Shown here one piece after another: positions 1 to 34,954 of a stretch of 36,680 nt of DNA. Below the pieces are notes generated by a model. That model made no database searches. It saw only the letters and a list, made by a program, of their open reading frames with translations, and was not told the origin of the DNA. Position 1 is the stretch's first letter, and each line of letters starts with the position of its first letter. The DNA lies in the NCBI GenBank assembly GCA_008632985.1, contig QPGO01000282.1, positions 1 to 36,680 of the forward strand, in the 5' to 3' direction. Position numbers and translations under genes: made by a program. This DNA is from Psammoneis japonica (Eukaryota).

Positions 1-110
1 CAACAACCATCACATCAAAAAAAGTGAGCTAGAAAAATGAGGATGACGTCAGGCGAGGAATCAGGAAAGCGTGCTGCGCGCACAGACGGGTGGGTTTCGG
101 ACAAGAAAAG

Positions 111-11960: not shown

Positions 11961-12429
11961 GGGCCGTAAAACAGCAAAGTGTTGCCCATGATGGTGTTGT
12001 GTGTGGTGTGGTTGGCCGCCGCTGGTGCGTGCGAAACAGCGATCCACATCACAAAAAACATGTCTTTCAACAGCCCCACAATTAACAAAACTGACTGTCA
12101 TGCGCGTGTCAACGGAAAGCACGACACAGATGTGTTGCCTCACACAGACTTGTGGCGAAGTCGTCAGGAGCAAACGAGCAGAAACGAAAACACGCCGTGG
12201 CCATGACGATGAAGATTGCAGCGGTGTTCCGAGTTTGGAGTCGAGATGATTACTTGGATCAAACCCAGCACCGGTTTAAATTGTGTCAAAACCAACTTGC
12301 CACTTCGCGGACACTGTTCCCTGCACGCGAAAATCTGAGGTGCGCAAGCACGCACTTTCCCACGCACTTTCTTCGTCTCACAATCGCAGTTCTGGCAAGA
12401 AAGCAAAGCATCGCATCAACAACATCACC

Positions 12430-13666
12430 ATGTTGTACGCTTTCCTCTTCTTGAACGCTTTGTTTCTCATTGGTGACTGTGGCCGAGCCATCTCTTGCCT
12501 GCGCAGGGATCCTAAAGAGTTCCCGGTGGGCGCGCTGCTCTGCTTCGTCTTGTGTTGCTTGTTGAGGAACATCGACGTCTGGATCGTCGTCCGAACCTTT
12601 GTGGTTGCATTTCTCATCTGGCTCTGTGCGATCCTCACTACGGCATTGCCCAAGCAGACAAGGTGGAATTGTTCTGAATTTAACCAGCATCCCCACGTTC
12701 CTCGCAGCCACTTTGTGGAGGCGCAACGCAAGACGTGTCGTTGCGACGTCAATGAGCCATTTGCATCGTAAGTTTTTGTTGCTCTTGTTGTACTGCCTTT
12801 TATTATGACGCTTGTTTCTAACGTCACCTTCTTTCTTTGATGTTCCATTTCTTGCGTTCAGCTCTGCTGACGGCACTGGTTCCAACAGTGGAGTGGCTCA
12901 CGAGCCGTCTTCAAACTACAACCCCCCACCCTCCGTCGATTTTAAAGAAAAAGACAACGTCAAAGCTTCATCCCCCCAAGCCGGGCCTTCCAAAGTACCG
13001 CTGCAACGTCAAACCAGAAAAAGACAACGTCCAAGCTTCACCTGTCAAGCCGAGCCCTCCAAAGCACCAGTGCAGAGTCGGTGAGAGAGTTTTGCACACG
13101 AACGGAAAAATACCAACGACGTCGCTTCTGCCAAGATCATCAGCATTCACCGCGACGACAAAACTCCACACTACACCATCCTCTTCTCTAATGACAGAGA
13201 GAGGCAGACGGTTGAAAAGAATCTGTCGCCCATCCCAAAAACACCAACGTCAGAAAAAGACGACATCAAAGCATCGCCTCACAAGCCGAGCCCTCCAAAG
13301 CACCAGTGCAAAGTCGGCAAGAACGTCAAGCACACGAACAGCAATGCCAACGACGTCGCATCTGCCAAGATCATTGGCATTCACCTTGACGACAAAACTC
13401 CGCACTACACTGTCCTCTTCTCCAACGGCAGAGAGCGACAGACAGAAGAAAAGAATCTATCTCCCGCCCCAAAAAAACCGACGTCCAAGTGCGAGAAGGG
13501 CCAAGACGTGCATTGCTGCCGCAACAACACTCGTGCATTGGCCAAGATTCTCAGGGTGTACTTTGATGATGATCTCGTGGCGCATTACGACATCAAATGT
13601 ATGGATGGGAGCGAGAGGCAGACGATTGACAAGCACCTGGAGGAATGTCCGGCTCCCGAGTTGCAG
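12430..13666 (+). pseudogene. Two-exon gene for a membrane protein (2-3 hydrophobic helices) with three C-terminal Tudor/SH3-like repeats, copy A
   Basis: caccATG at 12430; intron 12768-12861 (GTAAGT..CTAAC..TTCAG) joins in frame; repeats (Y)KVGExVx(Y)...AKIIxxHxDDxxx(Y)YTxxFSxGRERQTxEKNL; inferred ancestral TAG at 13664 now reads CAG; homopolymer frameshifts. Confidence 0.8.
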
Positions 13667-14369
13667 GGAGTGCGACGAGGCTGAGTTTTTTGCTGTTGCG
13701 GGTGGAGAAGATCGTCTGTGATTGTACATCTTATTTTTCGTTCAGGCCTGCATTGTCGTGAAGACGTGTTGGGCAGAAATTGTTTCAGATGTCAGCTTGT
13801 GGTGCGCATTCACTTGTCATTTTGGCACTCGAGTTTAACTGCAGCAGCAAAGTTGGAAGAGGCTTTCCAGATCTCGCATTCAGGCACGCATTGTCAAGAC
13901 GACACATGTGAGTTGGCCGCCGTTTCGGAACTGGTTTTGTGTGCCGGCAGAAGAGAATGCAAGATCTAGTTTGCCTCTGAAAGCTAATGTTGAACAGCAG
14001 CAACACTTGTTCCAATGTTCAAGTCGAAAACCATTGCAGGACTGGCGGAATCGAATGAGAAAATGAGAAACAAACATTGGACGGGCTTTTTGCGTGCAAG
14101 GTAGAAGCTCACGGATTGTCAGGTTTAGCATGGCAGGCATGGGGCATGGGAGTGGGGCTGGGGCTCGAGAGGGATTAGTTGGCGCACTGCAGAGTGCCAG
14201 GCCTGCAGATCAAGATTGTGAAAACAAAACAAAAATTAGAAAATGCACCACAATCAGAACATCTCTTTCGCGCTTTTGAAAACTCTCTTTCACATCGTCC
14301 CACTTGCAACCATCTGCTGATGGTGCAAGTGAGGCAATTGAGACTGTCATTGAGTGCAAGGTCATTGGT

Positions 14370-15035
14370 TAAGAGCGTCTGCTTTGTCCAAAGATTACCA
14401 CACAGGTTGCGACCATCAGCATTGAGCATCTCATGCACCGCACGAATCCACCAGGCCCGTTTCAGGCTGGGTCGGCAATCTCAAGGGCGATCTCCATCAG
14501 AACATCAAGGATCTTTGCATCGTTCAGGACCCGACAAAGGAAAAAAAGCATCCCAAGTAGCTCGCGGCCAGTTGCAAATCATTTGGTGCCGAGGAGGACG
14601 CGTCCGTGAAGGTGTTGCTTGCATCGGATCGGGTGTCTGCACACCTCACTCGACCTTTGCCGACGCCTGTCCATTGGCGCCTTGTGCTGATGCTGTGGAC
14701 GACACAGGCTGTGCCTCAGAACGGCAAGACATGCGTGCAAGACTTGGTTGCCATTGCCGATGATGCCCGTCGTCTGTTGCGTGAGCGCACCAACGGCATG
14801 CTTTGCGTTCGTGGCAACCGGAGCTTGCCCAAACCTCTTCAGGACGCCCTTGTCAAGAGCTTTTCCGAAGCGAGCGAAGATCCATCTGAGATAGAAGCCG
14901 CGACTGCTGTTGTGGAAGATGTGTTTGTCCAAGGTCGTGCTCAGCAAGGGGTTTGGTTGAACACGGGCGCCGCATTAAAGCAAAATCGTGCCAGACTACC
15001 CACAACCCATGACGACAAAAAGAATGGCAATTGGA
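14370..15035 (+). pseudogene. Fragment of an unidentified protein-coding gene
   Basis: Protein-like reading across copies: GNLKGGLHQNIKDLRIVKDPTKDKKYPK..AFGYKSLGAEEDASVKVLL..PVHWRLVLML..VQDLVAIADDARRLLRER; no family recognised. Confidence 0.4.
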
Positions 15036-15039
15036 AAAT

Positions 15040-15920
15040 TCTTGACGGAAAAGAGGGTCGCAGACATTCTTTCTGTGTCTTCATGCGCCACAATTGTTTG
15101 GGGTGGAGGCGAACATGATGGCTTCTTGTCGCCATCTGTGCCGGTTTGTGGCTGCATCGGAGTTGAAGCAGTTTCCGACTTGGAAATAAAGTTTGCAAAG
15201 TGCTTGGATGATTTAGCACTGAACAAAAGACGAGCAGCGTGCAACAATAATGCACATGCGTCCGTTCAACAAAAAGCATTAAATAAAAAGAATGACACGC
15301 ACCCTTCGCCAAGCATGCTTGCTGTCTGGAATGGGATCAATTGTTTCACAAATTCGCCTCAGCTGATCGTTTTCACAACCGTGAGGTGCATGGACAATCC
15401 GAGAAACAGTTCTGCCGCCACGCGTCCCAAGGACCACATGTCAAAAGCGGAATCGCACGGCAGCCGTAGAGTGGAAGAACTTCCGGGCTGCGGTAAAACC
15501 GAAATTGAATGTAGCTGTGAGCCGTGTTTCCTTCACAGCAAGCCGAACCGAAAACAGTTGACTTGACATTGCTCGAATGAGACTGCTTCTCGGTCGAACA
15601 ATTGATCGCTGGCACAATTCCTTCACGCTGCCGTCCATTGTTTTCATGAGCAGCGGCCGAACCTTTGTCAAGGGCAACCTTCTGAACTGCCGCTGATTCA
15701 AAACCTCTTGTGTTCATCCCAACAATTCAAACACCAAGCAAAGGTGATTCTGATGCGGACTGTACGATTGCAGGTGCGCTGTCTTGCGGTTTTCGCTTTG
15801 ACGTTAATGGCCAAGAAATCCTTGTCTTGCTCAGCACCCAAAGACACCAATCTCCACAGCTGCTTGTTGTGTACAAGCTTGCCTGTTCTTCACCACTTTC
15901 AGGGCTACAAAGACTGCCAT
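15040..15920 (-). pseudogene. DYRK-family (YAK1-like) protein kinase fragment, copy A
   Basis: VALKVVKN..QAAVEI, HLCLVFELLG, QRQFRRLPL, FGSAC(C)EGNTAHSYIQFRFYRSPEVL, MWSLG.VAAELFLGL; intron with donor at 15302; HCDLKPEN region missing. Confidence 0.9.
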
Positions 15921-15984
15921 GACAAACAGGGAGCGAGTTGAGACACGCATGTGCCACTCCAGTGCGGCTCTTTAAGCCACAGAC

Positions 15985-16570
15985 GCACCTTTCCACCGCC
16001 TGGTGGACTGGTTCCCTGCGCAAGGCGTCTGCATGCTTTTCGTGCACCAACAAGCAATCAGGAGCCACGCGCTAATTTTTCATTGCAAAAACAGAAACAG
16101 AAATGAGTTCCACAGCAGCAATTCAAAATCAACAGGAACAGCATTTTCAAATTCCAAAACTCCATTTACATGGCCTTTGTCCCACATAGAAAGTTTTGCC
16201 CAATGATGCATTCCTCGGCTCAATCTTTAAAAGAGAGAAAAGAGCAGTTGGCAAGATTAATGCGTTGGGTAATTCCGCCACTTTCACGCGCAACATGCAG
16301 CATGCTCACCCTTCCAACTTCCAATGCGTTCCGATCCGGCAAACAAAATGGTTCATCATTCTTTTCCAAGAGCATCTCTGTTTCTTCCACGCCGCCTTGA
16401 ACAACTGTTTGACAAAGAAGAGGGAAAACAGGAAGCGTCAGAAGAACGAGCTCTTCCACAAGACATGCAATGCACACACATGAGCATCTGCCAGGGGGTG
16501 CATGCACACACCTTGCAATGCTCCCGGATCAAAACAGTGTGTCACCAATTCTTGCAGGAGCACCAAGAGT
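15985..16570 (-). pseudogene. Aldehyde dehydrogenase (ALDH3-like) fragment with introns, copy A
   Basis: LLQELVTH(C)FDPGALQ/VVQGGVEETEMLLEK (joined by an intron with donor at 16511), ILFAGSERIG (FTGS motif), RII.GKTF..GQ, VAPD(C/Y)LLVHEKHADAL. Confidence 0.82.
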
Positions 16571-16584
16571 GCCCGACCGCACTG

Positions 16585-16893
16585 CGTCTCTCCTCCCAGA
16601 GTCGGTCCGACATCTTTCAGCTCTTGAATCTCCACCACACTTTTGTGCATGCGAGGAAAGGCGCTTCTGGCAATGACAGCAGCACCGGAAGCACCAAAAA
16701 CCAAATGAAAAAAGGACGTCCGCGAAGCTTCCAAAGCCTCGGAAACGATTGGGGCAGCGGAGGTTCCATCCGGAATTGCTTCAAGCCGCGACTTTGTGAA
16801 TGCAATTCGTGGGTCTCCATTGTCACTCGGACAAAAGGAGTGAACCATGCAGGTCACGATCAGCACAACAAGAAATGTGAGAAGGCACCTCAT
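16585..16893 (-). pseudogene. N-terminal fragment of a signal-peptide (possibly plastid-targeted) hypothetical protein, copy A; copy B at ~35550-35859
   Basis: caccATG followed by MR(C)LLTFLVVLIVTCMVHSF, a signal-like peptide; IWFFGASGAAVIARSAFPRM(H)..IQELKDVGPTLGGET. Confidence 0.55.
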
Positions 16894-17869
16894 GGTGAAC
16901 GGGACGGGAGCGCCAGTGCAGCACCGACAAAAAAAAAAGAAAAAAGTGAGCAAGAAAAATGAGGATGACGTCAGGAAAGCATGCGTGCTGCACACACTGT
17001 GCAGACGCACGACGCACGGGCGGGTGGCTGTTTTTCGGACGACAAAACAGCACAAGAATCCAACTTGAAACCAAACAACAGAGAAAATGCCCATGACTTG
17101 TTTCAATTTTGTCAAAATGTCCGCCAAGTTTCACCATCTTCCTTTCATGACACCCACTGCAACAGCTTCTCAAACCACATGATGGTTTGTCACACTCTTG
17201 TGTTTGTTCCTGTTTGGGGCCGACTCTCTGCAGGACCCTCGGCAGGCCTTGGTTTCTCAAGTTTCTCAACGTCTTATCCCAGACGACACATTGGTTCTCT
17301 GGCTCTGCCTGGTTTGACCTTCATGACTTCATTGAGTTGTTTGACAGTCAACACATGCCAGCAGCATTTCAAGGTGCTCGTGACCATGTCTGCTGTGGTT
17401 GTGTTGCAGCACAAATTCACATGTCAGGGTCAGGCCACGGCCAATCAAAAATCTAAACCTCAAATGACAGAAGAAGCAAGATGCATCCTCCAAGAACATC
17501 CAGCACACCATTCAAACATGCAGTGCTCACCTGACAGTTGGCATCTGGCCTTTGCCCTTCTTGCCACATTCTGAGGCCCCGCAGCCCTTCAAACCATGTT
17601 TTTTCTCCGCACAGCCCATGGCGCGCACTTAAACACAAACACAGGAGCACCTGCCATCCATCATCCAGCATCCTCTGTGCTCTTGCCAGTTTCCAACAAG
17701 GTGTCAGAGACACTCTTGAAGAAGCCAGGGAAGTTCTTGGTCTTTTCCACTGGCTTGCTCATTCTGAGCAGACATTTGGGAGCCTTCTGGCAGCGCTGGG
17801 TTTGCTGGTGCATTGCAAAGCAACCTCTTTCAGCACAGTTTCCAGCAGCAATCTGTGCATGAGTGCTGT

Positions 17870-18390: not shown

Positions 18391-19493
18391 TTTTTTGTGT
18401 GGAACTCAAGCAGCCAACTGTGGGCTTGCACAGGGCCATGCTTTCCATGCAGCATGGTTTGGCATGATCTGCTGCACCCCATCTGGGATTGCATGCTGTG
18501 CAAAAACTTGAAGCGGGCCACAGCTGGCACATCTGGAAATTGTCCTGAGGTCAGTTGACCTTTTTGTTGCAGGTTCTGATGAGCTTTTTCATTGTGTGTG
18601 CCCTTCATGTTGTTGGGAACAACACACGTCACTTGGAGCCCATGTTGTCAGTCACAAGTGTTTGTTTTGCCCCACATTTTTGAAGCATCTGCACAATCCA
18701 TTTGCTCTTCTCTCTGAAGTCACTCACAAACAAAGTGGTCTGCAGCCTGTTCTGGGTGGTGGAGTGGTCCTCCTCTTTCAAGCAAGAGCCTGTTGACTTC
18801 AGGGCACAACCATTTTTCATGTTTTGTGTTGTTTTGATTCGCACCTTCTGAGCATTTCATCAAGCAACATCTCTTGCTCAAGCAAAAGTGTGCACAGCTG
18901 CTCTTGCTGTGCATCACATCTGGGCTTTTTGTTTGATGTGCCACACCTTGATCACAGTTGCTGCGTGCTTGCATGCACGTTGAAGCAGCACCAGCATGTC
19001 TTCTGTGTGAAATGCAGAGCCAATGTTTTGCATCAGAACATGTGCATTGGCTCTAGAAGGAGCCACTCAATGGCCTTTCTAGGAAAGTCTTGTCCAGCCC
19101 ACACCCCCTGGCAATGTCAAAAATGTGCCAGCAGCAGTGTCTCAATTTTTTTCCAGGTGAGCCCCTTTCTGCTTCAGCCATTTGGTGCATGTGCCCAAGC
19201 TGTTGCAGTCACTCAATTTGCTGCCATGTTGGCAGTCACAAAGTTTTGAACATGACATTGTGCCTCACAGCTGGCTTCAACATCTCTCCTGCTGGTTGTG
19301 TGAAATGCAGCATCTGCAGCATGTTTGTGTCAAATGAGTTGAATCTTGGAATTTTTGCCATCTTGTGCTGACACGTGTGAGGTTGCAGCACATCACTGCC
19401 ATTTTGTTGAGCGGGGCAAAGGTTCTGAAAAATGATTGTGTGCACTCTCAACTGCACGAGCAACGCCACTGCAATTTTGCTCTTTGCTCCCCT

Positions 19494-19769
19494 TGGCAGG
19501 ATTTGAACAGGATTTAGGTGCGCGCGAAGCATCGCGCGCTGTTTAGTTTACCGCGCACAGTTTTGTGTGCTTTAGTTCCGCGCGTTCACGCGCGATGCAG
19601 TTTGCTTTCGAGCCACAAGGCTCACAAGAATGATGACAGTAGCCTGATTGCACCGACTTGCACGTCTTTCGGCTCCTGTGACGGTCTCTGAACGGAGACT
19701 CATCTGCCATTTAGACAGCAGTGAGGAGTTGTTGTTTGAATTCTTGCCATTTGCCTTCAATTTGCAACA
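19494..19769 (+). repeat. 5' LTR
   Basis: TGGCAGGATTTGAACAGG...TTTGCAACA; aligns without gaps to 26295-26570 (offset 6801). Confidence 0.96.
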
Positions 19770-19786
19770 GATTAACAGTCTTGCTC
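19770..19786 (+). other. Primer-binding site, complementary to a tRNA-Asn(GUU)-like anticodon arm (half-tRNA type)
   Basis: GATTAACAGTCTTGCTC directly follows the LTR CA; its reverse complement GAGCAAGA-CTGTTAA-TC contains the Asn anticodon loop CUGUUAA. Confidence 0.7.
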
Positions 19787-20717
19787 ATTGTCAACCCATT
19801 GAGCAACCGCCATCGTCGTCGTTGATTTACCAACGACACCACTTCAATTCTACGTGGACCTCCGCATGTGTTCTACATACATCGGCAAGTCTACGTGCAT
19901 TCAACACCAGGGCATTGGCAGGAAGTTAACGTCACCGTCAAGTCTCCTCACCGCTGGACATCTGGATTGATCATGCTGCCTTTGATCGCTGAAGACTTGT
20001 GTTCAACGGTCACATCCAAGTCTGTCCTTGATCAACATCCCTTGATGTGCCTGTTCCTCGGTTGACGGTCAAGAACCCTGCACATTCAAGGATCTTAGTC
20101 GCTGAAGACATGTGTGCACATGTGTGTGTGCATGTCTTCACGGCCAAGAACCTTCATCCACTCTTCGGACTGCGGTTTTGCTGCCACTCTGCAAGCACAC
20201 CGAGTCCACTGCACCTGATCCACCCCGGACTGCTGGTGCTCCACAGTTCTGCTGGGTCCACGAGGACGACTGTGAGAGCAAGCAGCCATGATTACAGCCT
20301 GCGTTGGGGCGAGGGTGTTTTTCCCGCGTTTGTTCGTTCGTCCACAGCGCCTGACGCCTGCGTCAACTGGCCAGCCTGATTGGGAAATCCAACCGACATA
20401 AAACAAGAACGGTTCGGGGGTCTTGTCCACCTCTGGTCAGCTTACCTGCAGGGGTTTACAACCCGCTACTCCGCTCGTAAGCAACCCAAAGCACCACCAG
20501 CTGCGGGTTCGGACGTGCCGGCACAACTCTACGGACCGGATGGGAAGTTTAGCACTCAACAACGAACGGGATAACAAAGCCAGGCGACTTCTGATTTTAA
20601 GACAGTTCAAGATTTCAAGTCAAGTCCATTTCAAGTCAAGTCTGTTCTCACCCAAGTTTCGAGTCTACCTTCGCTTCCCAACCAGAATTGATTGTCCTGA
20701 CACCACTTTTGTCTGCC

Positions 20718-23700
20718 ATGGTTCTCACTCGTCAGCAACAAACCGATGGTTTCGAGCACGTTGTTGGAACCGTGCTTGCCCAAGGTGCTGGGAGTCCTCT
20801 TCGTTTGGCTTTGGCCCAAGACGGCACGGACTCGTGTCAGGAACTGTTCACGTTCATACCGTCCCAAATCGACTCGCTTGAGTGCGACAACGGCACTGGT
20901 GTAATCCCCTTGCCCCGTGGTCATAAGAACATGTTAGCAGCACCAGTCAGTCTGTACATTGTCAAAGCACACAAAGGTCTTGACGTTGCCAACGACTCCT
21001 CTTTGTTCGCGCATGACAAGTTCCTTGCCTGCCGCCTCAGCCCCGACTGCATGTCTTCTGTGTCCATCGGCAGCTCACCCCTTGCACCTCCACATGTCAC
21101 CAACCCGACCAAGGCACGCGACCCGGTGAGAGACTTCAAGCGAGGCATCAAGCGTGATCCCACCGCTTTCACGGCTCTCAAATCCGACAAGCAGTGGCAC
21201 ACTTGGCACACCTCACTTGTGGCACAAGCCCGTGCCCAAGACGTCGAGTGCATTCTAGACTCGTCGTACAAACCGACCAGCCCCGAAGACAAACTGCTCT
21301 TTGCTGAACAGCAAAAGCACATGTTCGCCATCTTCGAACGCATCCTTCTCACCGACAAGGGCAAGGCTCTCATTCGCGAAAATGTGGGGTCTTCTGACGC
21401 ACAGACCGTCCACCGCTCCTTGTCTGAGTGCGCGCTTGCCTCCACCCATGCATCTGTCGAGTCCTCCACCCTGCTCACGCACCTCACCACCGCACGTCTT
21501 GGTGATGGCACTTGGAAAGGTCCGACCCACGGGTTCATCCTTCATTGGCAAGATCAGTTGCGCAAGTGCGAGGCACTCATCCCCGCCAGTGACCACTTCT
21601 CTGAAGGACAGAAGCGCGTCATGCTCGAGAATGCCGTGCACCCTGTCGAGGAACTCCGTGCTGTCAAGAACCAAGCTGATCAGCATCGCACGCAGAGTGG
21701 CAAGAGCCTCACATGCGATCAACACTGTGGCTTGCTCCTCTCCGCGGCAGCTCAGTGCGACAGCACGTTTCAACCCAAGACGACACCCAGAGCTCCCCGA
21801 TGCGCCATACACGCACACGACGTCTGCTCCGAGGAACCGTCCGAAGATGTGTTCTACGACATTGACAGTGACGTTGACGTCCTTCAAGCCAATGCTGCCT
21901 GCACCCGCGGTCCCAGCCTCACCGGTGTCCAATGGAGACGTCTCCCTCCCGACCACCAACGGCTCTGGGATTCGTTGCCCGATTCCTCCAAGGCGATCAT
22001 CCTTGAGCATTCTCGTCCGCCTCCCCGCAACCCGCGAGCCAGCAACTGCCATGAGTCTGTTACGGCCAACCTTCACGACCAACACCTTGGGAGTGACGGT
22101 GATGTCAACTTGTCCAACACGACTCCTGCTGACTCTGGTGACTCCGCTCCACATGTGGACGCCACTTCGGACAATCCCATCCTGGCGCACCTCACCAAGC
22201 GCAAGCCACTGCCACCCGGTGATCTGCAACGTCTGTTGTCTCCTAACCAAGCCCCCAATGCCAGTCGACCGGGGCCATCCGCCGCTTCCTCTACCCTGCC
22301 AGCTTCTGCAGATGACACAGAACTTAACGGCCGCACTTGCCGCCGCGTCAACAACCACAATGTCATTCACTCTGCCTCTGCTCATCGCTCCACACGCACT
22401 GGCGCTCTAGTCGATCGTGGGGCCAACGGCGGCATTGCTGGCGACGACGTTTGCGTCATTGCACGCACCTCTTGCCAAGTCGACGTTCAGGGCATTGACG
22501 ATCATCAATTGGTGGACATCCCCATTGTCACCGCTGGTGCCGTTGTTGAGACCCAGCGTGGTCCCGTCATCGCCATCCTCCATCAGCACGCATGCACGGG
22601 CAAGGGCAAGACCATCCATTCCTGCGGCCAGCTCGAATGGCACAAACAGGATGTCAACGATCGCTCTGTCAAGGTGCCCAACGGCTTGCAACGCATTGCC
22701 ACTCCTGATGGCTGTGTCATCCCCATTGACATCAAGGCTGGCCTGCCTCATGTTGCCATGCGACCTTGCACTGACGCCGAATGGGACACCCTGCCCCATG
22801 TCATCCTCACCGGTGATGACACATGGGACCCTTCCGTCCTCGATCACTCTGTCACTGATGACGACCAGTGGCACGACGCGATCTCTGACCTGCAGGACGA
22901 TCCCACTGCCAACCTATTTGACGAATGCGGCAACTGCCGTCATCGTGTCGTTGTCAATGAGACCATCATGTCCACTTCCTTGTCTGCCGATCACGCGTCC
23001 GCCCTCGATGATCACCTCATTCCGAACAACGACGTGTTCTACGAGTGTCATCTGCGCACTGTACAGCCCAAGGACCCCCCCTTCGAGTCTCTTCGGCCTT
23101 GCTTTGGCTTCCCACCTGCCGATGCGGTCCGTCGTACTTTTGACTGCACCACGCAGTGCGCCCGCATGCCCGCCGGTACACACCTTCGCAAGGCCTGCAA
23201 ATCACCCAACCCCGCCCTCAATGTGCACCGCCGCAACGAGCCTGTCGCCACTGACACCGTTTGTGCCGACACCCCGGCCGTCGACTCTGGTTGCACCAGC
23301 GCCCAACTGTTTGTTGGCACCGAGTCTACCGTCACTGACGTCTGCGGCACTGAGACGGACAAAGAGTTTGTCAACACACTCGAGGATCAGATCCGTGAAC
23401 GTGGTGCCCCATCCAAACTCATTGGCGACCGTGCTCAAGTTGAGATCAGCAACAAAGTGCTCGGGATCCCACGCGCCCTCTTCATCTCCAGCTGGCAAAG
23501 TGAGCCTCACCAGCAACACCAAAACTTTGCCGAGCGTCGACACCAGACCGTGAAGCGCATGGCAAACACTGTCATGGATCGTTTTGGTTCGCCCGCCCAC
23601 ACATGGCTGCTGGCGCTCATGTGCGTGTGCTTCGTGCTCAACCATGCAGCGTCCCCACGTCTCCACTGGCGCACGCCCCTCGAGACTCTCACTGGCTCCA

Positions 23701-26294
23701 CCCCGGACATCAGCCCATTGCTTCGCTTTCACTGGTGGGAACCCATGTGCTTCCACCTCGATGACTCCGATTGGCCGTCCGAATCCCGTGAGTTGCGTGG
23801 ACGCTTCGTTGGCATTGCTGAGCACGTCGGCCACCAAATGACCTTCAAAAATTCTATCTGACGAGACTCAGAAGATCCTCTGCCGGTCCAACGTCCGCTC
23901 CGCCACCCCCGATCCTGCCGTTCGAAACCTGCGTCTTGATCCTCCTGATGGGGAGCCACCTGAACCCATCATCAAATCTCGCCATGACGACAACCCCGTC
24001 GATTCTCCTGATGGGGAGATCAGGACACCCAAGATTCCAGTTTTTTGATCCGCAAGACATCATTGGACGTGCCTTCCTCATGCAGCCACAAGAGGACGGA
24101 CAACGCCACAGAGCTCGCATCGTCAAGGCCGTCGAAGACCACGAATGGAAAGTGAACGGCAATCCCGAGCTCACTAAGTTCGTCTGCTCTGTCAACAATG
24201 ACGAATACGAGGAAGTCCTTGCCTGCAATGACATCATGAATCACATTGAGCAAGAAGACGAAGACACCACTGTTTGGAAATTTCGACGCATCGTGTCACA
24301 CGAAGGACCTCTGAAGCCTCACGACCCAACCTGGAAAGGCTCCAGCTACAACATCATGCTTGAATGGGAAAGTGGGGAGATCACGTCCGAGCCTCTTGCC
24401 ATCATCGCCAAGGACGACCCCGTCACCTGTGCCATCCATGCACGAGAGAACGGACTCCTCGACACGGATGGCTGGAAGCGGTTCCGCACCATCGCGAGGC
24501 GCCAAAAGAAGCTGTTTCGCATGGCCAACCAAGCCAAGCTTCGCTCCTTCCGCACTGCACCTCGCTGCAAGCATGGGTGCGAAGTTCCCCAGAACTACAA
24601 ACACGCCATGTCACCAGACAAACGCAACGGCAACCGCAAGTGGGGAGACGCAACTAATCTCGAGATGGACCAACTCGACGAATACGAAGTCTTCCATGAC
24701 TGCGGGCCCTTCAAGTCTTCCACTCCTCCTGCGGGACACAAGAAGATCCGAGTGCACCTGGTGTGCGACGTGAAACACGACGGTCGCCACAAGGCACGAC
24801 TCGTAGCCGACGGGCACCTCACAGACGTACCTGTCGACAGTGTCTGCTCCGGAGTAGTCTCCCTCCGTGGCCTTCGGCTGATGATTTTCCTGGCCGAACT
24901 CAACGAGTTGGAGACATGGGCCACCGACATTGGCAATGCCCACCTTGAAGCCACCACCAAGGAGAAGCTTTACATTGCAGCTGGACCCGAGTTCGGCAAA
25001 CTCGAAGGACACATCCTTGTCATCCACAAGGCACTGCATGGACTGCGCAGCTCCGGTCTCCGCTGGCACGAGCGCTTCGCCGACTGCCTGCGAGCTGAAG
25101 GCTTCTTCCCCTGCCGCGCCGAACCCGACATTTGGATGCGCAGGAATGGCGACCACTGTGAACACATTGCCGTTTATGTGGATGACCTCGCCATTGCCAT
25201 GAAGGACCCTCAATCTTTCGTCGACACTCTCACGGAAAAGCACAAGTTCAAGCTCAAGGGCACGGGACCCATTGAGTTCCATCTGGGTTGCGACTTTTCC
25301 CGGGAACCCGACGGAACCTTGTGCCTGTCTCCGCGCAAGCACATCGAGCGCATGGTCGACAGCTGTGCCCGACTGTTTGGGGAGAAACCTGCCACCAACG
25401 CCCTGTCACCTCTAGAGAAGGGTGACCACCCCGAACTGGACACTTCCGAACTGCTGGGACCTGATGGCATTCGCAAGTTCCAGTCTCTTGTTGGTTCACT
25501 CCAATGGGCAGCATCCCTTGGTCGAATTGACATCACCACGGCCGTCATGTCACTCTCTAGCTTCTGAGCTGCGCCCCGTCAAGGCCACTTGGATCGTGCC
25601 AAACGCGTCTGTGGGCACCTCTCCAAGATGCGACACGGTGCTCTCCGCGTTCACACGGAAGAGCCCGACCATTCGGATCTCCCTGCTCCGGCCTGTGAAT
25701 GGATGCATTCCATGTGTGGTGAAGCAGAAGAGATGATCCCAAAGGACGCTCCACCGCCCCTTGGCAAGTTCGTCACTGCCACCCACTACGTCGATGCAAA
25801 CTTGTGCCATTGCATGCTCACCGGACGCTCTGTCATGGGAATGCTCCACTTCCTCAACAAATTCCCGGCTGATTGGTTCTCTAAGAAACAAGCCACCGTG
25901 GAGACTGCGACCCACGGGTCTGAATTTGTTGCCGCAAGGACTTGTGTTGAGCAGATCATCGACCTGCGCATCACCCTGCGCTGCCTTGGCGTCCTGATCC
26001 GCAACGTTAGTTACATGTTCGGTGACAACAAGTCGGTTGTAGACAGTGCCACCATCCCACACTCCAAGTTACACAAGCGACACACCGCACTGTCGTTCCA
26101 CCGTGTGCATGAGGCAATTGCCTCTGGTCACCTTGAGCTCCACTTCATCGAAGGCTCCCGCAACCCTGCTGACATTCTCAGCAAGCATTGGGGTTGCTCC
26201 CAAATCTGGGACCTTCTCCGCCCCCTCATGTTCTGGAACTTCATTCCATCCGAAGTCGAATCTGTTTCTGTGGCTCCTCAAGCAAACTGGGGAG
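20718..26294 (+). pseudogene. gag-pol polyprotein (Gag, aspartic protease, integrase, RT, RNase H), disrupted
   Basis: Gag FKRGIKRDP; PR ALVDRGANGG; IN ATDT...GDRAQVE...QNFAERR; RT HKARLVADGH, DIGNA, YVDDL (25175); RH YVDANL, GSEF, GDNKSV, NPADILSK. Frameshifts near 23850 and ~24010, in-frame TGA at 25565 (probably from CGA), and pervasive Tyr->Cys/His. Confidence 0.95.
26289..26294 (+). other. Polypurine tract (short)
   Basis: GGGGAG directly upstream of the 3' LTR TG. Confidence 0.7.
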
Positions 26295-26570
26295 TGACAG
26301 GATTTGAACAGGATTTGGGTGCGCGCGAAGTGTCGCGCGCTGTTTAGTTCACCGCGCACAGTTTTGTGTGCTTTAGTTCCGCGCGTTCACGCGCAATGTG
26401 GTTTGCTTTCGAGCCACAAGGCTCACAAGAATGATGACAGCAGCCCGATCACACCGACTCACACGTCTTTCGGCTCCTGTGACGGTCTCTGAACGGAGAC
26501 TCATCTGCCATTTAGACAGCAGTGAGGAGCCATTGTTTGAATTCTTGCCATTTGCCTTCAATTTGCAACA
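26295..26570 (+). repeat. 3' LTR
   Basis: TGACAGGATTTGAACAGG...TTTGCAACA; preceded by a purine run and followed by the TSD CCCCT. Confidence 0.96.
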
Positions 26571-27734
26571 CCCCTCTTGGCAAACACACATTTTTGCACT
26601 TGCACAGGGCAACATTCCTGCAACCTGCACAGGAATGGGGTCCAACCACTCAGGCAGTGACATGTGAGTTCAGTGCCATGGAAGTTGCAAGACCACTCTG
26701 TGCACAACTCACATGCATGGGGCAGCAAAACATGCTGCAGAGCTTGAGTCCACATTTGACACTGTGCATCTTCTGCAAAGCCACCCCTTTGTGCAAGATG
26801 TGCCAATTGCAGGATGAACAGCTGGGTCATGACTTTCCTGCATGAAACTCATGTGTGCAACAACAGGCTTGCAAGGTGCTTCTGCATTGTGATCAGCTGA
26901 TCCTGCGGGCCAGTCTGCAGACATGCAGAATGGCAGCCTTGCTGCATGCAATCCAGGGTTGCTTGCTGAACAGTGGCTCAAGATCATTGCTGTCCAAACC
27001 AGCAGCTGGCACCATGCAATGTTTTCAGGCAAACTGTTCTTGGTGAACACTCATCCACTCCATTTTGTCAGCTGGAGCTGCTGACAGCATGGCTGCCAAG
27101 AACAACCTGGGCTTGTGCCCTGATGCCTGTGGTGCTGCTGGCACCAATTTTGTCACATCCAAGCAGTGCAAACCTTTGAAAGATGTGCCAATCTGCACAG
27201 CTGCTGCTGTGTGGGTTGACCCAAAGTTGGGTCAACCTCACCTGCTGCCAGCCCGCAAGCAGGCCATGCACTTTGAGGGCTGGATGAAAAAATTGCTCTT
27301 GTGCCCCAGCAGCTGCACCCAAGTGGGTTGGAACTGTTCATGGCACACCTTGCCAGTTTGACAGGAGCAGGAATGCTCCTCACCCAGCTGTGCTCTTCCC
27401 TGGTGCTCAACAAAAGTCACAAACCTGCTGAAACCAGAGGTCACAACCCTGCTGCAACCAGAGGGAGTTTTGCTGGCATTTGAATCTGACAAATCTGCTC
27501 AGGTGGATCTGAACAACCTGCCATGAGTGGAGCTGATGTTGCTGCTAAAGTGGGGGGGCTTGTCGATGCTTCTTTTGGACAAAAGGAGGGAGATGTCCAA
27601 AGCAAAGGTGGCATGGAATGAGGAGGACAATGGTGGCACCCCAGAACAGATCAGGGAAGGCAAGAACCCAAATGCGGCAGGCTGTCAGAAGCTCAAATGT
27701 CATTTGGGTGGAAGAAATCATGGTCGCCAACTTC

Positions 27735-28070
27735 AAAATGAAGCAAGCCTTGTCACTTGACTGTGACACAGAGTCAGGGGCCTCCATCATGGGCAATGAC
27801 AAGAACCTCACAGCCGATGTGGAAATGATGGAACAGACACAGGTGCAAGCTGATGTTGTGGTGGCTTTGGCACAAAACCTGGATGCTCGTGAAGTGCGGT
27901 CAATGAGGTTGCAACACTGTTTGTCTGATGGATTTATCCGGTCAATTGCTGAGTGTGCCGGTGCCATGGGCTTGGGCGAGTTGTGCACAGCACTCAGTTG
28001 GCGGCAAGATGTTTGAAGAAGTTGTGCCATGAGGCACACGTTGCATCCAGTTTCCAAGAGCATCTCTTGA
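27735..28070 (+). pseudogene. Sigma-70 factor C-terminal fragment, copy B
   Basis: KQALSLD...ADVVVALAQNLDAREVRSMRLQHCLSDGFIRSIAECAGAMGL. Confidence 0.75.
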
Positions 28071-28939
28071 TGATTGCCCAGACAGGATGTGCAACACAGA
28101 AGCCAACATGACATCAGAGCCAGAATGGATGCACTGAGCTTGACCGTGCCTGCTGAACTTCACCTCCAATCCTGTCAGCACACACATCGTCTCCTCCCCA
28201 ACAGCACTGGGGTTTGGTTGATTCCAACCACCAAACCATCTGTGCAATGACCAGGCTTCTCATGGGCTTTACAACCCCACTGGTTGGAGAGTGGATGTGT
28301 GTTTCCAACAAAATTGAAGCAGGTGTGACCACATTTCCAGACACTGACGGGAAATGAGAGGAGCTTGGTCAAATCGGATGAGAAAAGCAACAGGTCAACA
28401 CATCCCCATCACACCTGGGATGGCCAGTCCCTTCCAATTGAGGCATGTGGTGGGAATCCCTTCATGCCGTGCCTCAACCAATTCATCCGCAACCACTGCA
28501 GATTTTCTTGACTCCACTGAATCGCTTCTTTTTTGCTGACAATTTCGAAGCTCTGTGCCGTCATCCATTTGGGTGAATGACAAAGCGCACTGCTCATTCA
28601 TTGACATTTCAGCCTGTGCTGCGGCATCTAACCACAGCGAAGTTCCCAACACATGGACACCACAAACATCCAGTGCCTCCTTCTCCAGCAAATCTTGTTC
28701 TCCTCTGCATGCGAGCCACTCCCGCTGCCCCAACACCCTTCTTGATTTCCTGCCTTGGATGTTGCACATCTCCTGATTTCCAACAACAAACAATGTCTCT
28801 TCAAACTGATCAGTTTGCTTGTGCAAGAAAGCATGCAGTGAGTTGGTTTAAGACAAGCCTGATGTCACCGAGCAATGCCAAGACAGAAGCACGCCACCGA
28901 ACAAATGAAATTTTCTCATGCACTTGCTGATTCCAACGC

Positions 28940-29550
28940 CAGACAGAATGCTTCACAGTGGCAACACTTTGAAAGTTGCTCCAGTCAGAAATGTAAAAAT
29001 GAATCACCAAGTCATTTGTGGACAGGAGTGCCAGTTGATTTGAGTCCCTGTGCTTCATTGGCATCTCATCACACTTTCTTGCAACCAAAGACTTCAGCTC
29101 TCCTGCCTCTTCTAAGGATCTCTGCTTGGCGCATTTGGCAAGATGCACAAATCCAACGTTCCAAGCAATGAAGACAGACTCTGGGCAAGGTGCAATCAAA
29201 GTTGCATCTCCTCCAAGATTGGAAAATGTGCAGCAACATTCAGCTCCTTTGGCACTGCATTCTTTGTTCGTTTCCTCAACATTTTGATCTAAACTGCTCT
29301 CAATGTGATGGTTCTCGACCGTGTCGTCACCGCTGCTTGTTGTGTCCCAGCCACCATCCCTCCTGCAGCCTGCCCAATTGTTGCTTTCAGCATCCCAATT
29401 GATTTCCATCCAAAATCTTTGTGCACATCATCACTGCAACTGGCAGATCCAAACAGATGTTCAGAAAAGGTTTCGGGGTCAGCCTCAGCTGCACTCTCTA
29501 GATCAAGAGACGGGCCCAGGGCAAACTCAGCTGGAATGAATCTGCACTTC
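28940..29550 (-). pseudogene. Fragment resembling DUF6940-type proteins (family name from memory), copy B only
   Basis: EF..ADPETFSEHL..TFSNLGGDATLIAPCP..HLA..LST..HF*LEQLSK(CC)H(C), compared with the recalled motif FxNLGGDAxLxxP..HLA..LST..LHxRLDxxPKYY. Confidence 0.5.
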
Positions 29551-29569
29551 CTCTGCACTTGAAAATTGA

Positions 29570-30380
29570 AAGCAAGAAAATGGGCTGTGATGCCTTGATG
29601 ACTCTGCCCATTCTGCAGCGGATGGCTCAGACCCCAAATGCAATGGAAAGAAGAATCAATGTGGCCGAAAGGGCAAATCCAAAGCCACGCAGTGCCCTGT
29701 TCAGGTGCTGCAGCTGCAATCCACCTGGACCTTTGAGTGGAGGCAGAGACACCTCATGTTGGTTGTTCCATTGCAAGAGACACGGGGTCAAACTGCACCA
29801 CGTTCCCATCTCGAAAAATGTCTGTCCGAACAGCACCAAAGGCGACATTTCCGGTTTCTGGGTCTTTTCGTTCCACAAAGTTGAGCAACCGGTGCAATGC
29901 ACAGTGGTCAAATCATGAGACCCTGTCATTGGGTCAATGACAGCAGAATCCGAAGAATCCACAAAGCTTTGCATTGACAGCATGCTCGCAATGGGAGACG
30001 CCGTCAAAGCAAGTGAGACGTCGCGCAAGCAGCCAGCCCATGGAGATTGTGGAACCATGTGCAGAAAGATCCCCAGATCTGGAGACTTGAATGTTCTTTT
30101 GACTGGAAGCTGATCTCCACGTGATCTGGATGGTTCTGAAGCTCTTGCATGCTCGAAACCATTGCACGCAGATCGCAAGAGTTCCTGGCATCCTGGCTCT
30201 GGACAAAGAGCACGGAACTTGTGTGTTCTACGAGCCACCTTGCACAGGACGCAGGTCATCTGAGAAAAAACCAGACACAGTCATTTCCAGTGATCCCCTG
30301 GCAATTGTAAAGCAAGGGTGTCAGGTGGTTTTGCTGAGAGAGAGATTCCGGACCGTAGCAGCAAAGTGTTGACCATGGTC
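29570..30380 (-). pseudogene. Class C GPCR fragment, copy B (truncated at TM2)
   Basis: Aligns to ~11195-11985; more degraded than copy A. Confidence 0.8.
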
Positions 30381-30827
30381 TTGTGTGGTGCGGTTGGGCG
30401 CTGGCAGGTGGTGCGGCACAGCACGTGCGAAAAAGCGATCAATCGAACAGAAGAAAAAATTTTGTCCATCACCAGCCCCACAACAAACAAAAATGACTGT
30501 CATGTGCGTGTCAACGGAAAGCACGACACAGATTTGTTGCCTTGCAAACTTATGGCGAAGTCGCATCAGGAGCAAACGAGCAAAGAAAAAGCGGCTGTGG
30601 CCATGACGATGAAGATTGTAGCGGCATTCCGAGTTTGGATTCGAGATGATTACTTGGATCAAACCCAGCACCGGTTTAAATTGTGTCAAAACCAACTTGC
30701 CACTTCGCGGACACGATTCCCTACACGCGAAAATCTGAAATGCGCAAGCACGCACTTTCCCACGCACTCTTCGTCCCACAATCGCAGTTCTGGCAAGAAA
30801 GTAAAGTGTCGCATCAACAATGTCACC

Positions 30828-32063
30828 ATGTTGTGCGCTTTCCTCTTCTTGAACGCTTTGTTTCTCATTGGCAACTATGGCCGAGCCATTTCTTGCCTGC
30901 GTGGGGATCCTAAAGAGTTCCTGGCAGGCGCGGTGCTCTGCTTCGTCTTGTGTTGCTTGTTGAGGAACATCGACGTCTGGATCGTCGTCCGAACCTTTGT
31001 GGTTGCATTTCTCCTCTGGCTCTGTACGATCCTTGCTACGGCATTGTCCAAGCAGACAAGGTGGAATTGTTCTGAATTTAACCAGCCTCCCCACGTTCCT
31101 CGCAGCCACTTTGTGGAGGCGCAACGCAAGACGCATCGTTGCGACGTCAATGAGCCATTTGCATCGTAAGTTTTTGTTGCTCTTGTTGTGCTGCCCATTG
31201 TTGTGACGCTTGTTTCTAACGTCACCTTCTTTCTTTGATGTTCCATTTCTTGTGTTCAGCTCTGCTGACGGCACTGGTTCCAACAGTGGAGTGGCTCACG
31301 AGCCGTCTTCAAACTACAACCCCCCACCCCTCCGTCGATTTTAAAGAAAAAGACAACGTCAAAGCTTCATCCCCCAAGCCGAGCCTTCCAAAGTACCGCC
31401 ACAACGTCAAACCAGAAAAAGACAACGTCCAAGCTTCACCTGTCAAGCCGAGCCCTCCAAAGCACCAGTGCAAAGTCGGTGAGAGAGTTTTGTACACGAA
31501 TGGCAATGCCAACGACGTCGCTTCCGCCAAGATCATTGGCACTCACCTTGATGACAAAACTCTGCACTACACTGTCCTCTTCTCTAACAACAGAGAGAGG
31601 CAGACGGTTGAAAAGAATCTATCGCCCATCCCAAAAACACCAACGTCAGAAAAAGACGACATCGAAGCATCGCCTCCCAAGCCGAGCCCTCCAAAGCACC
31701 AGTGCAAAATCGGCGAGAACGTCATGTGCACGAAAAACAATACGAACGATGTCACTTCTGCCAAAATCATCAGTGTTCACCGCGACGACAAAACTCCGCA
31801 CTACACTGTCCTCTTCTCCAACGGCAGAGAGCGACAGACAGAAGAAAAGAATCTATCTCCCGCCCCCCAAAAAACCGACGTCCAAGTACGAGAAGGGCCA
31901 AGACGTGCATTGCTGCCGCAACAACGCTCGTGCATTGGCCAAGATTCTCAGGGTGCACTTTGATGATGATCTCGTGGCGCATTGCGACATTAAATGTGTG
32001 GATGGGAGCGAGAGGCAGACGATTGACAAGTGCCTGGAGGAACATCCGTCTCCCGAGTTGTGG
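30828..32063 (+). pseudogene. Same TM plus 3x Tudor/SH3-like gene, copy B
   Basis: ATG at 30828; intron 31166-31259 (94 nt); inferred ancestral TAG at 32061 now reads TGG; frameshifts in C-runs near 31325 and 31865. Confidence 0.8.
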
Positions 32064-34014
32064 GGAGTGCGACGAGGCTGAGTTTTTTGCTGTTGCGGGT
32101 GGAGAAGATTGTCTGTGATTGCACATCTTATTTTTCATTCAGGCCTGCATTGTCGTGAAGACGTGTTGGGCAGAAATTATTTCAGATGTCAGCTTGTGGT
32201 GCGCATTCACTTGTCATTTTGATGCTCGAGTTCAACTGCAGCAGCAAAGTTGGAAGAGGCTTTCCAGATCTCGCATTCAGGCACGCATTGTCAAGACGAC
32301 ACATGTGAGTTGGCCGCCGTTTCGGAACTGGTTTTGTGTGCCGGCAGAAGAGAATGCAAGATCTGGTTTGCCTCTGAAAGCTAATGTTGAACAGCAGCAA
32401 CACTTGTTCCAATGTTCAAGTCGAAAACCATTGTGGGACTGGCGGAATCGAATGAGAAAACGAGAAACAAACATCAGACGGGCTTTTTGCGTGCAAGGTA
32501 GAAGCTCACGGATTGTCAGGTTTAGTGTGGCAGGCATGGGGTGTGGGAGTGGGGCTGGGGCTCGAGAGGGATCAGTTAGCGCGCTGTAGAGCATTGGGCC
32601 TGCAGATCAAGATTATGAAAACAAAACAAAAATTAGAAAACGCATTGTCAGAACATCTCTTTTGCACTTTTGAAAACTCGCTTTCACATTGTCCCACTTG
32701 CAATCATCCGCTGTCAGTGCAAGTGAGGCAATTGGGGACCATTGCTGAGTGCAAGGTCATTGGTTGAGAGCGTCTGCTTTGTCCAAAGATTGCCGCACAG
32801 GTTGCGACCATCAGCATCAAGCATCTCATGCACTGCACGAATCCACCAGGCCCGCTTCTGGCTTGGTCGGCAATCTCAAGGGCGGTCTCCACCAGAATGT
32901 CAAGGATCTTTGCATTGTCAAGGACCCAACAAAGGACAAAAAGCATCCCAAGTAGCTCGGGGGCCGGTTGCAGATCATTTTGTGCCGAGGAGGACGCGTC
33001 CGTGAAGGTGTTGCTTGAATCGGAACAGGTGGTGCTGCACATCTCATTCGACACTTTGCCCACGCTTGTCCATTGTCGCCTTGTGCTGATGCTGTCAACG
33101 ATGCAGCCACATGCCACTTTGTTCAAAGATTGCCACATGCCGCAGGTTGCGACCATCAGCACGAAGCATCTCCTGTGCCGCACAAATCCACCAGGCCCGG
33201 TTCAGGCTTGAACGGCAATCTCAAGGGCGGCCTCCACCAGAACATTGGGAACTTCGCATCGTCAAGGACCCGACAAAGGATAAAAAGCATCCCAAGCATC
33301 TCGCGTTCGGTTACAAATCACTTGGTGCCGAGGAGGACGGGTCCATGGAGGTGTTGCTTGCATCGGCACGGGCAATGCTGCACACTTCACTCGACACTTT
33401 GCCGACGCCTGTCCATTGGCGCCTTGTGGGGCTCGAGAGGGATTGGTTGGCGTGCTGCAGAGCATCAGGCCTGCAGATCAAGATTATGAAAACAAAACAA
33501 AAATTAGAAAACGCATTGTCAGAACATCTCTTTTGCACTTTTGAAAACTCGCTTTCACATCGTCCCACTTGTGTCATCCGCTGTCAGTGCAAGTGAGGCA
33601 ATTGAGGCTGTTGTTGAGTGCAAGGTCATTGGTTGAGAGCATCCACTTTGTCCAAAGATTGCCGCACAGGTTGCGACCATCAGCACCAAGCATCTCATGT
33701 GCCGCACGAATCCACCAGGTCCGCTTCTTGCTTGGTCGGCAATCTCAAGGGCGGTCTCCACCAGAATGTCAAGGATCTTCGCATCGTCAAGGACCCGACA
33801 AAGGATAAAAAGTATCCCAAGTAGCTCGCGGGCGAAGATCCATCTGAAATAGAATCCGCGACTGCTGTTGTGGAAGATGTGTTTGTCCAAGGTCGTGCTC
33901 AGCAACAAGGGGTTTGGTTGAACACGGGCGCCGCATTAAAGCAAAATCGTGCCAGACTACCCACAACCCATGACGACAAAAAGAATGGCAATTGGAAAAC
34001 TTTTGACGGAAAAG

Positions 34015-34885
34015 AGGGTCGCAGATTTCTTTCTGTGTCTTGATGCGCCACAATTGTTTGGGTGGAGGCGAACATGATGGCTTCTTGTCGCCATGTGTGC
34101 CAGTTTGTGGCTGCATCGGAGTTGAAGCAGTTTCTGACTTGGAAATAAGTTTTGCAAAGTACTTGGATGATTTTGTGCTGAACAACGACGAGCAGCGTGC
34201 AACAATGAACAAGCACATGCGTCCGTTCAATGAAAAAGCATCAAATGCAAAGAATGACACGTGCCCTTCGCCAAGCATGCGCACTGTCTGGAATGGGATC
34301 AATTGTTTCACAAATTCGCCTCAGCCAATCGTGTTCACAACCGTGAGGTAGTGTGGACAATCCGAGGAACAGTTCTGCCGCCACGTGTCCCAAGGACCAC
34401 ATGTAAACAGCGGAATCGCAGGGTAGCCGTAGAGTGGAAGAACTTCCGGGCTGCGGTAAAACCGAAATTGAATGTAGCTGTGAGCCGTGTTTCCTTCACA
34501 GCAAGCCGAACCGAAAGCAATTAACTTGACATTGCTTGAATCAAACCACTTCTCGGTCGAACAATTGATCGCTGACACAATTCCTTCACGCCACCGTCCA
34601 TTGTTTTCATGAGCAGCGGCCGAACCTTTGTCAAGGGCAACCCTCTGAACTGCCGCTGATTCAAAACCTCTCATGCATTCATCCACAACAATTCAAACAC
34701 CAAGCACAGGTGATTCTGATGCGGACTGTACGATTGCAGGTGCACTGTCTTGCGGTTTTCGCTTTGACGTCAATGGCCAAGAAATCCTTGTCTTTGCTCA
34801 GTGCCCAAAGACATTGATCTCCACAGCTGCTTGTTGTGCACAAGCTTGACCATTCTTCACCACTTTCAGGGCTGCAAAGACTTCC
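34015..34885 (-). pseudogene. DYRK/YAK1-like kinase fragment, copy B
   Basis: ALKVVKNGQACAQQAAVEINVF; NVKLIAFGSACCEGNTAHSYIQFRFYRSPEVL. Confidence 0.9.
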
Positions 34886-34954
34886 AAGACAAGCAGGGAG
34901 CGAGTTGAGATGCGCATGTGCCACTCTAGCACGGCTCTTTGAGCCATGAACGTA

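Follow-up and report, generated by a model that had tools for sequence, protein, structure and literature searches.

The stretch of Psammoneis japonica DNA analysed here, 36,680 nt in length and called the window in what follows, carries a retrotransposon with long terminal repeats (LTRs) that spans 7077 bp (19494-26570), and whose two LTRs have come to differ mainly through the loss of TA dinucleotides, replaced by CA or TG. The element is a Ty1/copia LTR retrotransposon with a reverse transcriptase (RT) of the RVT_2 type, and all of its features described below lie on the forward strand. Repeat search and pair alignment place the 5′ LTR (276 bp, with TG...CA ends) at 19494..19769 and the 3′ LTR (276 bp, 93.8% identical to the 5′ LTR) at 26295..26570; besides this pair, no further copies of the LTR exist within the window. 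The target-site duplication CCCCT can be read directly on the left (19489..19493) and on the right (26571..26575), and agrees with a contig of the empty site described below, in which five letters fit both sides of the joint. A purine-rich tract ending in GGGGAG (26280..26294, direct reading), which adjoins the 3′ LTR, is the putative polypurine tract.

The coding interior begins with an open frame of 1086 aa (20601..23861), assigned to the gag-protease-integrase part on the basis of its translation and of BLASTP, where, of the 240 homologues compared, 24 are matched in their N-terminal parts by the last 365 residues. Residues 718-1083 (about 22753-23849) are integrase-like according to the homologue alignment, and a D,D-35-E-like pattern can be made out in this frame by eye only; no Pfam family was matched at E <= 0.01 in this frame, and none of integrase, protease or gag in the other frames of the element. 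The RT frame (581 aa, 23822..25567) contains RVT_2 (PF07727) at residues 303-513, with Pfam E-values of 1.4e-25 and 1.6e-25, the former scoring 90.8 bits (cut-off 31.6). An in-frame TGA (25565-25567) interrupts the pol frame, at a column occupied by Arg in 114 of 131 relatives, and the continuation of the frame past this stop, the RNase H part (25568..26347), was traced by homologue alignment up to read-through residue 832, with an X at the stop. Here the integrase part is read in another frame than the RT part, whereas in at least 24 homologues one protein contains both.

The closest protein relatives are 66-72% identical and nearly all environmental (among the best 120 of 2137 matches and the best 120 of 3832 matches), and no relative above 72% identity was found among the best 120 of 2137 or, in a second search, the best 120 of 3832. 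The nearest named relative among the matches listed is a diatom protein, from Epithemia, at 55% identity. The GC content of the element is 56.6%, against about 46% in its relatives.

Differences between the two LTRs

The LTRs of a retrotransposon are identical at insertion through reverse transcription, and a pair of them is a natural clock, from which action after integration and on both strands can be read without a culture experiment. The initial annotation, made from the sequence alone, had counted 17 differing bases in 276, all of them transitions, by hand alignment at an offset of 6801; realignment at this offset, without gaps, gave the same result. TA loss accounts for 13 of these changes, CpG-type change for two and other change for two. 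More specifically, TA stands against TG or CA at three sites, namely TA/TG at 19515/16 and TA/CA at 19549 and 19640; the first of these sites had been correctly recognized, but its differing base is 19516 and not 19515. The five reciprocal sites that had been described, at which one LTR carries CA and the other TG, are likewise present in the realigned pair, with CA in the 5′ LTR and TG in the 3′ LTR at 19530-31 and 19598-99, and the converse at 19649-50, 19659-60 and 19730-31. The four other differences are those originally given, two of CpG type at 19594 (CG vs CA) and 19645 (TG vs CG) and two of other kinds at 19496 (G/A) and 19729 (T/C), and TA does indeed survive in both LTRs at 19544, 19573 and 19712. 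All three of these intact sites sit in TTTAG.

Counted as paired dinucleotides (5′/3′ LTR), the comparison yields three TA/TA, two TA/CA, one TA/TG and five CA/TG pairs, together with 19 CG/CG, one CG/CA and one CG/TG. Both T>C and A>G changes are found in each LTR. Dinucleotides of a pyrimidine followed by a purine (YR), which cover 146 of the 276 bases, hold 15 of the 17 differences (binomial P = 0.0025), and six pairs of differences are adjacent where 0.99 would be expected (P = 0.0001, 200,000 random placements). That all 17 differences are transitions has a chance of 0.005, given the transition share of 350/477 in the other duplicated blocks of the window.

The origin of the reciprocal sites was addressed with a likelihood model of the LTR pair that has one loss probability per site class per copy and in which double changes in the same direction go unseen. 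With all five reciprocal sites derived from TA the fit reaches lnL -5.91 (p_TA 0.69, p_CG 0.05), whereas derivation from CG gives lnL -14.41, which is 8.5 ln units worse, and every intermediate split of the sites between TA and CG also fits worse than all-TA. The number of events per site in the TA, CpG and other classes stands at approximately 1.16 : 0.05 : 0.005. The LTRs diverge by 6.2%, of which 1.4% is left once the TA-type sites are set aside, and 0.7% once the CpG sites are removed too.

Direction and timing of TA loss

A CA/TG pair is ambiguous in a mirrored fashion (TA>CA/TG or CG>CA/TG), and the coding interior serves as an outgroup test of the direction. For the RT part, columns with at least 70% agreement among at least 60 homologues were used, 276 in total, from the alignment of the best 120 of 2137 homologues. 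At the 17 columns where Tyr is conserved the element has Tyr at four, His (CAY) at six, Cys (TGY) at five, and Trp and Phe at one each, while the median homologue keeps 94% of them. Conserved Arg columns are kept in 17 of 17 cases (16 as CGN codons), and the remaining 242 conserved columns show 13 changes. Set against the 259 conserved columns other than Tyr, 13 of which have changed, the 11 of 17 columns with Tyr>His/Cys are a clear excess (Fisher P = 1.6e-9). The three conserved Tyr columns at the integrase end (threshold of at least 10 homologues) now read Cys, Cys and Phe; in the RNase H part, two of seven are kept, two have become His and three Cys, and 10 of 12 conserved Arg columns are kept, the other two being His.

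When pooled, the 27 conserved Tyr (TAY) columns comprise six Tyr, eight His (CAY), 10 Cys (TGY), one Trp and two Phe; 28 of 31 conserved Arg columns are kept, with two His and one TGA. Therefore, 18 of 27 Tyr codons have turned into CAY or TGY, as against a change of about 5% in other conserved columns. Because the His and Cys replacements balance, the mutation hits both strands equally. Most of the directed change in this copy runs from TA to CA/TG, on both strands alike, and the direction proposed by the initial annotation thus finds support in the conserved Tyr and Arg columns, in the likelihood fit and in the family contigs treated below. CpG decay in this copy is also real, and several-fold weaker than TA loss. 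The loss per TA site-copy is 0.69 in the LTRs and 18/27 = 0.67 at the interior Tyr codons, as expected if nearly all TA loss postdates integration.

The same 17 Tyr columns were inspected in two environmental copia proteins from other sources. One of them (P0105) has three Tyr, seven His and five Cys, and the other (P0044) nine Tyr, two His and six Cys, which hints, from these sequences, that the process may extend beyond one genome. The TA content is ordinary in eight relatives of P0105 with identities of 76-82%.

Other copies of the family were reached through public contigs from four sequencing runs of one sample, placed on 18500-27600 at a likeness of at least 80%. The contig depth is 62,000-165,000 over the element and 175-375 over the flanks, where single contigs have a depth of 70-100, and one run (X1) alone contributes 14,056 contig pieces to the region at 80-100% likeness. 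Given this depth and this number of pieces, the family has roughly on the order of a thousand copies. The family letters that follow come from the 40 of 615 variant rows that were listed, and among these the polymorphism of the family is found mostly at TA/CA/TG sites. At 19640 the majority letter is T, with C in 27% of the depth, so the CA of the 3′ LTR is the derived state; C accounts for 99% of the depth of the family at 19645, which makes the TG of the 5′ LTR a private case of CpG decay. At 11 listed interior sites, all CA or TG in this copy, TA makes up 10-74% of the depth of the family, and other contigs read CA where both LTRs carry TG. A search with a degenerate pattern of the LTR returned no match in viral_contigs, metagenome_contigs or genome_contigs.

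One contig of run X1 represents the empty site, in that it joins 19488 to 26571, skips 7082 bases and has five letters that fit both sides. Together with the matching CCCCT duplication, this precise empty site bears out the earlier view that the LTRs belong to a single insertion rather than to two. The contig differs from the window at five of 618 flank bases (0.8%), from which it follows that the insertion is younger than a split of 0.8%, and yet its LTRs are 6.2% apart. At several flank positions every covering public contig differs from the window, so that the run must contain more than the data behind the window itself. The claim that the mutation acted after integration and on both strands stands, given T>C together with A>G in each LTR, the eight His and 10 Cys replacements, the agreement of 0.69 with 0.67 and the empty site. 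As had also been anticipated, LTR-based dating is inflated here, by a factor of four to eight according to the divergence of 6.2% as opposed to 1.4% or 0.7%, and in keeping with the 0.8% by which the flanks differ from the empty site.

A related copia element from an ordinary genomic background, with a TA observed/expected ratio of 0.57, was used as a control; among its relatives this ratio is 0.47-0.70. Its 683-bp LTR-like pair has 16 differences, 13 of which are transitions, and the pair table contains 25 TA/TA, two TA/CA, six pairs of CpG type and no CA/TG.

Composition and repeats of the surrounding sequence

The depletion of TA extends over the entire window, where TA occurs 0-17 times per kb, compared with about 62 per kb estimated from base composition. 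For TA, the flanks have an observed/expected ratio of 0.03-0.13, which compares with 0.19 in the element interior together with the 3′ LTR, and 0.37 in the 5′ LTR; CA and TG are at 1.2-1.9 across the window, and CG is at 0.16-0.6 in the older flanks. The older stretches are poorer in TA than the young element. More specifically, an older compartment (about 2-10 kb, 17-19 kb and 26.6-30 kb) contains no more than 6 TA and 23 CG per kb, and the element and the duplicated blocks contain about 4-17 TA and 40-82 CG per kb. Across the compartments of the window, TA and CpG are thus lost in parallel. The survival of TA depends on its neighbours, with ATAT seen once against 369 CA/TG in the same context, ATAC and ATAG surviving at about 1.3%, and TTAA at 7.6%, the highest value. 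Among the trinucleotides of the window there are 91 TAA, 69 TAG and 737 TGA, and the scarcity of TAA and TAG leads to long spurious open frames on both strands.

Self-comparison of the window reveals a duplicated block on the forward strand, with a first copy at 8734..17200, which is depleted in TA and partly in CG, and a second copy at 26780..36154 that is 75-89% identical to the first; the copia element is positioned between the two. In the 89%-identical parts (5761 aligned bases) there are 350 transitions and 127 transversions, and the YR pairs comprise 36 TA/TA, 54 TA/CA plus TA/TG, 242 CG/CG, 68 CG/CA plus CG/TG and 66 CA/TG. The other types of adjacent double transition occur one to five times each, and the 66 CA/TG sites make the reciprocal signature a general one in the window.

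Several other repeats are present. The start of the window (4-1422) matches its end (35903-36678), as though long units were arranged in tandem. Both copies of the block contain sub-repeats of about 234 bp in tandem (12973-13485 and 31371-31881), and tandem repeats of 78 bp lie further upstream (5350-5583). Runs of N occupy 1591-2186 (596 bases) and 7742-8113 (372 bases). The only Pfam matches outside the element lie at 28813-29427 (reverse strand), 13085-13681 (forward strand) and 31220-31960 (forward strand), and consist of DUF6940 (E = 3e-8) and of weak matches to DUF1918, DUF4537 and a Tudor-knot-like family in the duplicated block. Among the 99 open frames outside the element no host gene was found with Pfam, nor was any recognisable gene found in the duplicated block.

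Possible explanations and comparison with known systems

We consider it likely that mutation of chromosomal DNA from TpA to CpA or TpG after the insertion, probably by deamination of adenine as a means of defence, explains both the LTR pair and its surroundings. Several observations weigh against this reading. In the duplicated blocks, a hand-fitted model with homogeneous rates predicts about 12 reciprocals where 66 are seen, which implies either that rates vary among sites or that CA and TG are exchanged via a short-lived TA or CG. Parsimony on sub-repeats with three to four copies returns one TA>TG, five CA/TG>TA, 15 CG>TG/CA, six CA/TG>CG and 11 changes between CA and TG, a set that is small and saturated, and too weak to polarise TA changes in the older blocks. 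For the family state at the five reciprocal sites, proposed to have been TA, the contigs provide evidence at one site, 19598-99, where a single contig end reads TA; the other four are not among the rows listed. CpG decay contributes as well, in that TG or CA of the window corresponds to CG in the family at six listed sites, and Arg has disappeared from three of the 31 columns in which it is conserved, in one case through the in-frame TGA. Finally, the letters of the window at 21009, 21018 and 25473 occur in no contig of the public run, and the LTR sequences themselves could be mosaics, as discussed below.

CpG decay is also the basis of the alternative in which the five reciprocal sites were ancestral CpGs, whose methylated C was deaminated on opposite strands in the two LTRs. 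That such decay occurs is evident from the two CpG-type LTR differences and the six sites just mentioned, from the change of CGA to TGA and of two Arg to His, and from the low CG ratio of the older flanks. However, with 19 CG intact in both LTRs and two hit once, approximately 0.03-0.13 reciprocals would be expected by a hand estimate, and five are seen; the fit is worse by the 8.5 ln units given above, Arg is kept at 28 of 31 columns as opposed to Tyr at 6 of 27, and the family contig end at 19598-99 reads TA and not CG. We hold this explanation of the reciprocal sites to be quite improbable. A reversal of the direction, with C>T changes at CpA/TpG creating TpA in some copies, in the manner of the repeat-induced point mutation (RIP) of fungi, has even less to recommend it, even though TA/CA/TG polymorphism among copies gives no direction alone and the older sub-repeats show five apparent gains of TA and one loss. 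TA stands at 0.03-0.19 of expectation in a situation where RIP would enrich it, conserved Tyr codons have become His and Cys codons, and older sequence is the poorer in TA; we regard this possibility as hardly credible.

The remaining alternatives concern the origin of the two LTR sequences. They might be mosaics that assembly or polishing created across the roughly one thousand members of the family, or that arose by gene conversion from other copies, in which case their differences would be family polymorphism. The depth over the element relative to its flanks and the many pieces at 80-100% likeness make such mixing conceivable, the family polymorphism is mostly of the TA/CA/TG kind, and some window letters are absent from the public contigs. 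On the other hand, the 5-bp duplication and the precise empty site belong to a single insertion, and TA loss in the LTRs matches that in the interior; even if mosaics were present, the polymorphism and the polarity of Tyr>His/Cys would still require a chromosomal loss of TA specific to individual copies. Mosaic LTRs are therefore unlikely, if less so than the other alternatives. Editing of retroelement intermediates is well known, and the changes could have been made during retrotransposition, by ADAR-like editing of RNA or APOBEC3-like editing of single-stranded cDNA. It can be reasoned that cDNA editing after plus-strand strong-stop synthesis could in principle split the LTRs, but RNA editing would leave them identical, such editing is one-stranded where A>G and T>C are here combined in each LTR and eight His stand beside 10 Cys, and the duplicated blocks, which are not part of the element, carry the same CA/TG signature. 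An origin before integration is accordingly extremely improbable.

In the preferred explanation, mutation of the chromosomal copy, the Ty1/copia element inserted with a 5-bp duplication, and the double-stranded DNA of the chromosome was then mutated from TpA to CpA or TpG (A>G on either strand). This rate is estimated to exceed that of other bases about 250-fold and that of CpG decay about 20-fold. The pattern, its direction, its timing relative to integration and its symmetry between strands are demonstrated by the data, whereas the enzyme and the role in defence are inferred. Approximately two thirds of TpA were lost in each LTR, independently, and in the coding interior, and wherever the same TA was lost on opposite strands of the two LTRs a CA vs TG pair resulted. 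A slower decay of CpG to TpG/CpA proceeded alongside, and the same process may have nearly emptied the older surrounding repeats of TpA. The likeliest chemistry would be an enzymatic deamination of adenine in the TpA context of DNA, with the product taken for G when the DNA is next replicated; the same data would also fit a modified thymine at TpA that subsequently mispairs. The role may be that of a defence against repeated or foreign DNA, similar to RIP with the opposite base change. The co-depletion of CpG could represent ordinary decay of 5-methylcytosine or a second activity of the same system.

A wider proposal, which we put forward as a tentative and rather doubtful one, is that this is a second and far more pervasive case of TpA-directed DNA editing, in an organism other than the alga Bigelowiella natans (B. 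natans), where it would affect both the copia family, with its roughly one thousand copies, and the tandem repeats nearby in the manner of RIP, removing up to 97% of TpA over tens of kb, and coupled to CpG decay in the same compartments. Such a coupling of TA and CG would fit one system acting on the two YpR dinucleotides that are self-complementary, such as a DNA deaminase with both A and C as substrates.

Chromosomal A>G hypermutation at TpA has so far been described in one preprint and in one alga. If the host of the present element is not B. natans, the process is wider than known, and the search for the enzyme becomes a comparative problem. At about 250 times the background, the process kills a retrotransposon by replacing its conserved tyrosines. 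It also has consequences for the study of such genomes, in which (i) LTR-based ages are inflated four- to eight-fold, (ii) the stops TAA and TAG vanish and spurious long frames appear and (iii) repeat annotation based on Pfam fails.

With the Ty1/copia elements of protists the present one shares the TG...CA LTRs (here of 276 bp), the 5-bp duplication and RVT_2, and perhaps also an integrase before the RT; it differs in that Pfam detects no integrase, protease or gag in it, and in that its closest relatives among those listed are 66-72% identical. The decay of CpG through 5-methylcytosine likewise yields TpG/CpA and possibly reciprocal CA/TG between duplicates, and is a minor component here, but it fails to account for the loss of TA, for Tyr>His/Cys and for the number of reciprocals given 19 intact CpG pairs. 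Fungal RIP mutates C>T mostly at CpA, creates TpA and lowers GC. Dinucleotide-specific transitions of repeated chromosomal DNA on both strands, with inactivation of transposons, are common to RIP and to the present case, whereas here TpA is destroyed, GC is raised and the polarity runs from TA to CA/TG. APOBEC3 and ADAR offer a parallel as context-specific transition hypermutation of retroelements driven by a deaminase, which in the present case would be a presumed one; their substrates are single-stranded cDNA or RNA, so that only one strand is edited, prior to integration, whereas the changes here arose after integration and are symmetric between strands.

A literature search for TpA-to-CpA/TpG mutation of DNA found only the preprint on B. 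natans. In that alga, mutation-accumulation lines show de novo TpA>TpG/CpA changes, about 6e-7 per site per generation, in chromosomal inserts of a giant virus and of a virophage (Mettrop et al., bioRxiv 10.64898/2026.01.13.699255). According to the preprint, 124 TpA-depleted clusters exist, reverse-transcriptase Pfam families are enriched in TpA-depleted coding sequences, and an ADAT2-like deaminase is proposed as the candidate enzyme; the words LTR, retrotransposon, copia and CpG do not occur in its text (bioRxiv 10.64898/2026.01.13.699255). Both cases have in common TpA>TpG/CpA on both strands, in foreign or mobile DNA of the chromosome, with depletion of TpA and an excess of CpA/TpG. The changes in B. 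natans are confined to TpA, whereas here 13 of the 17 LTR changes fit and a minor CpG decay goes alongside, and the depletion is far deeper here, at 0.03-0.19 compared with 0.45 in the giant-virus region of B. natans. De novo mutations form the evidence there; here it is formed by the LTR clock, the protein outgroups, the polymorphism of a copia family with a very high copy number and the empty site. The present case is thus the same kind of process as that in B. natans, with a new line of evidence.

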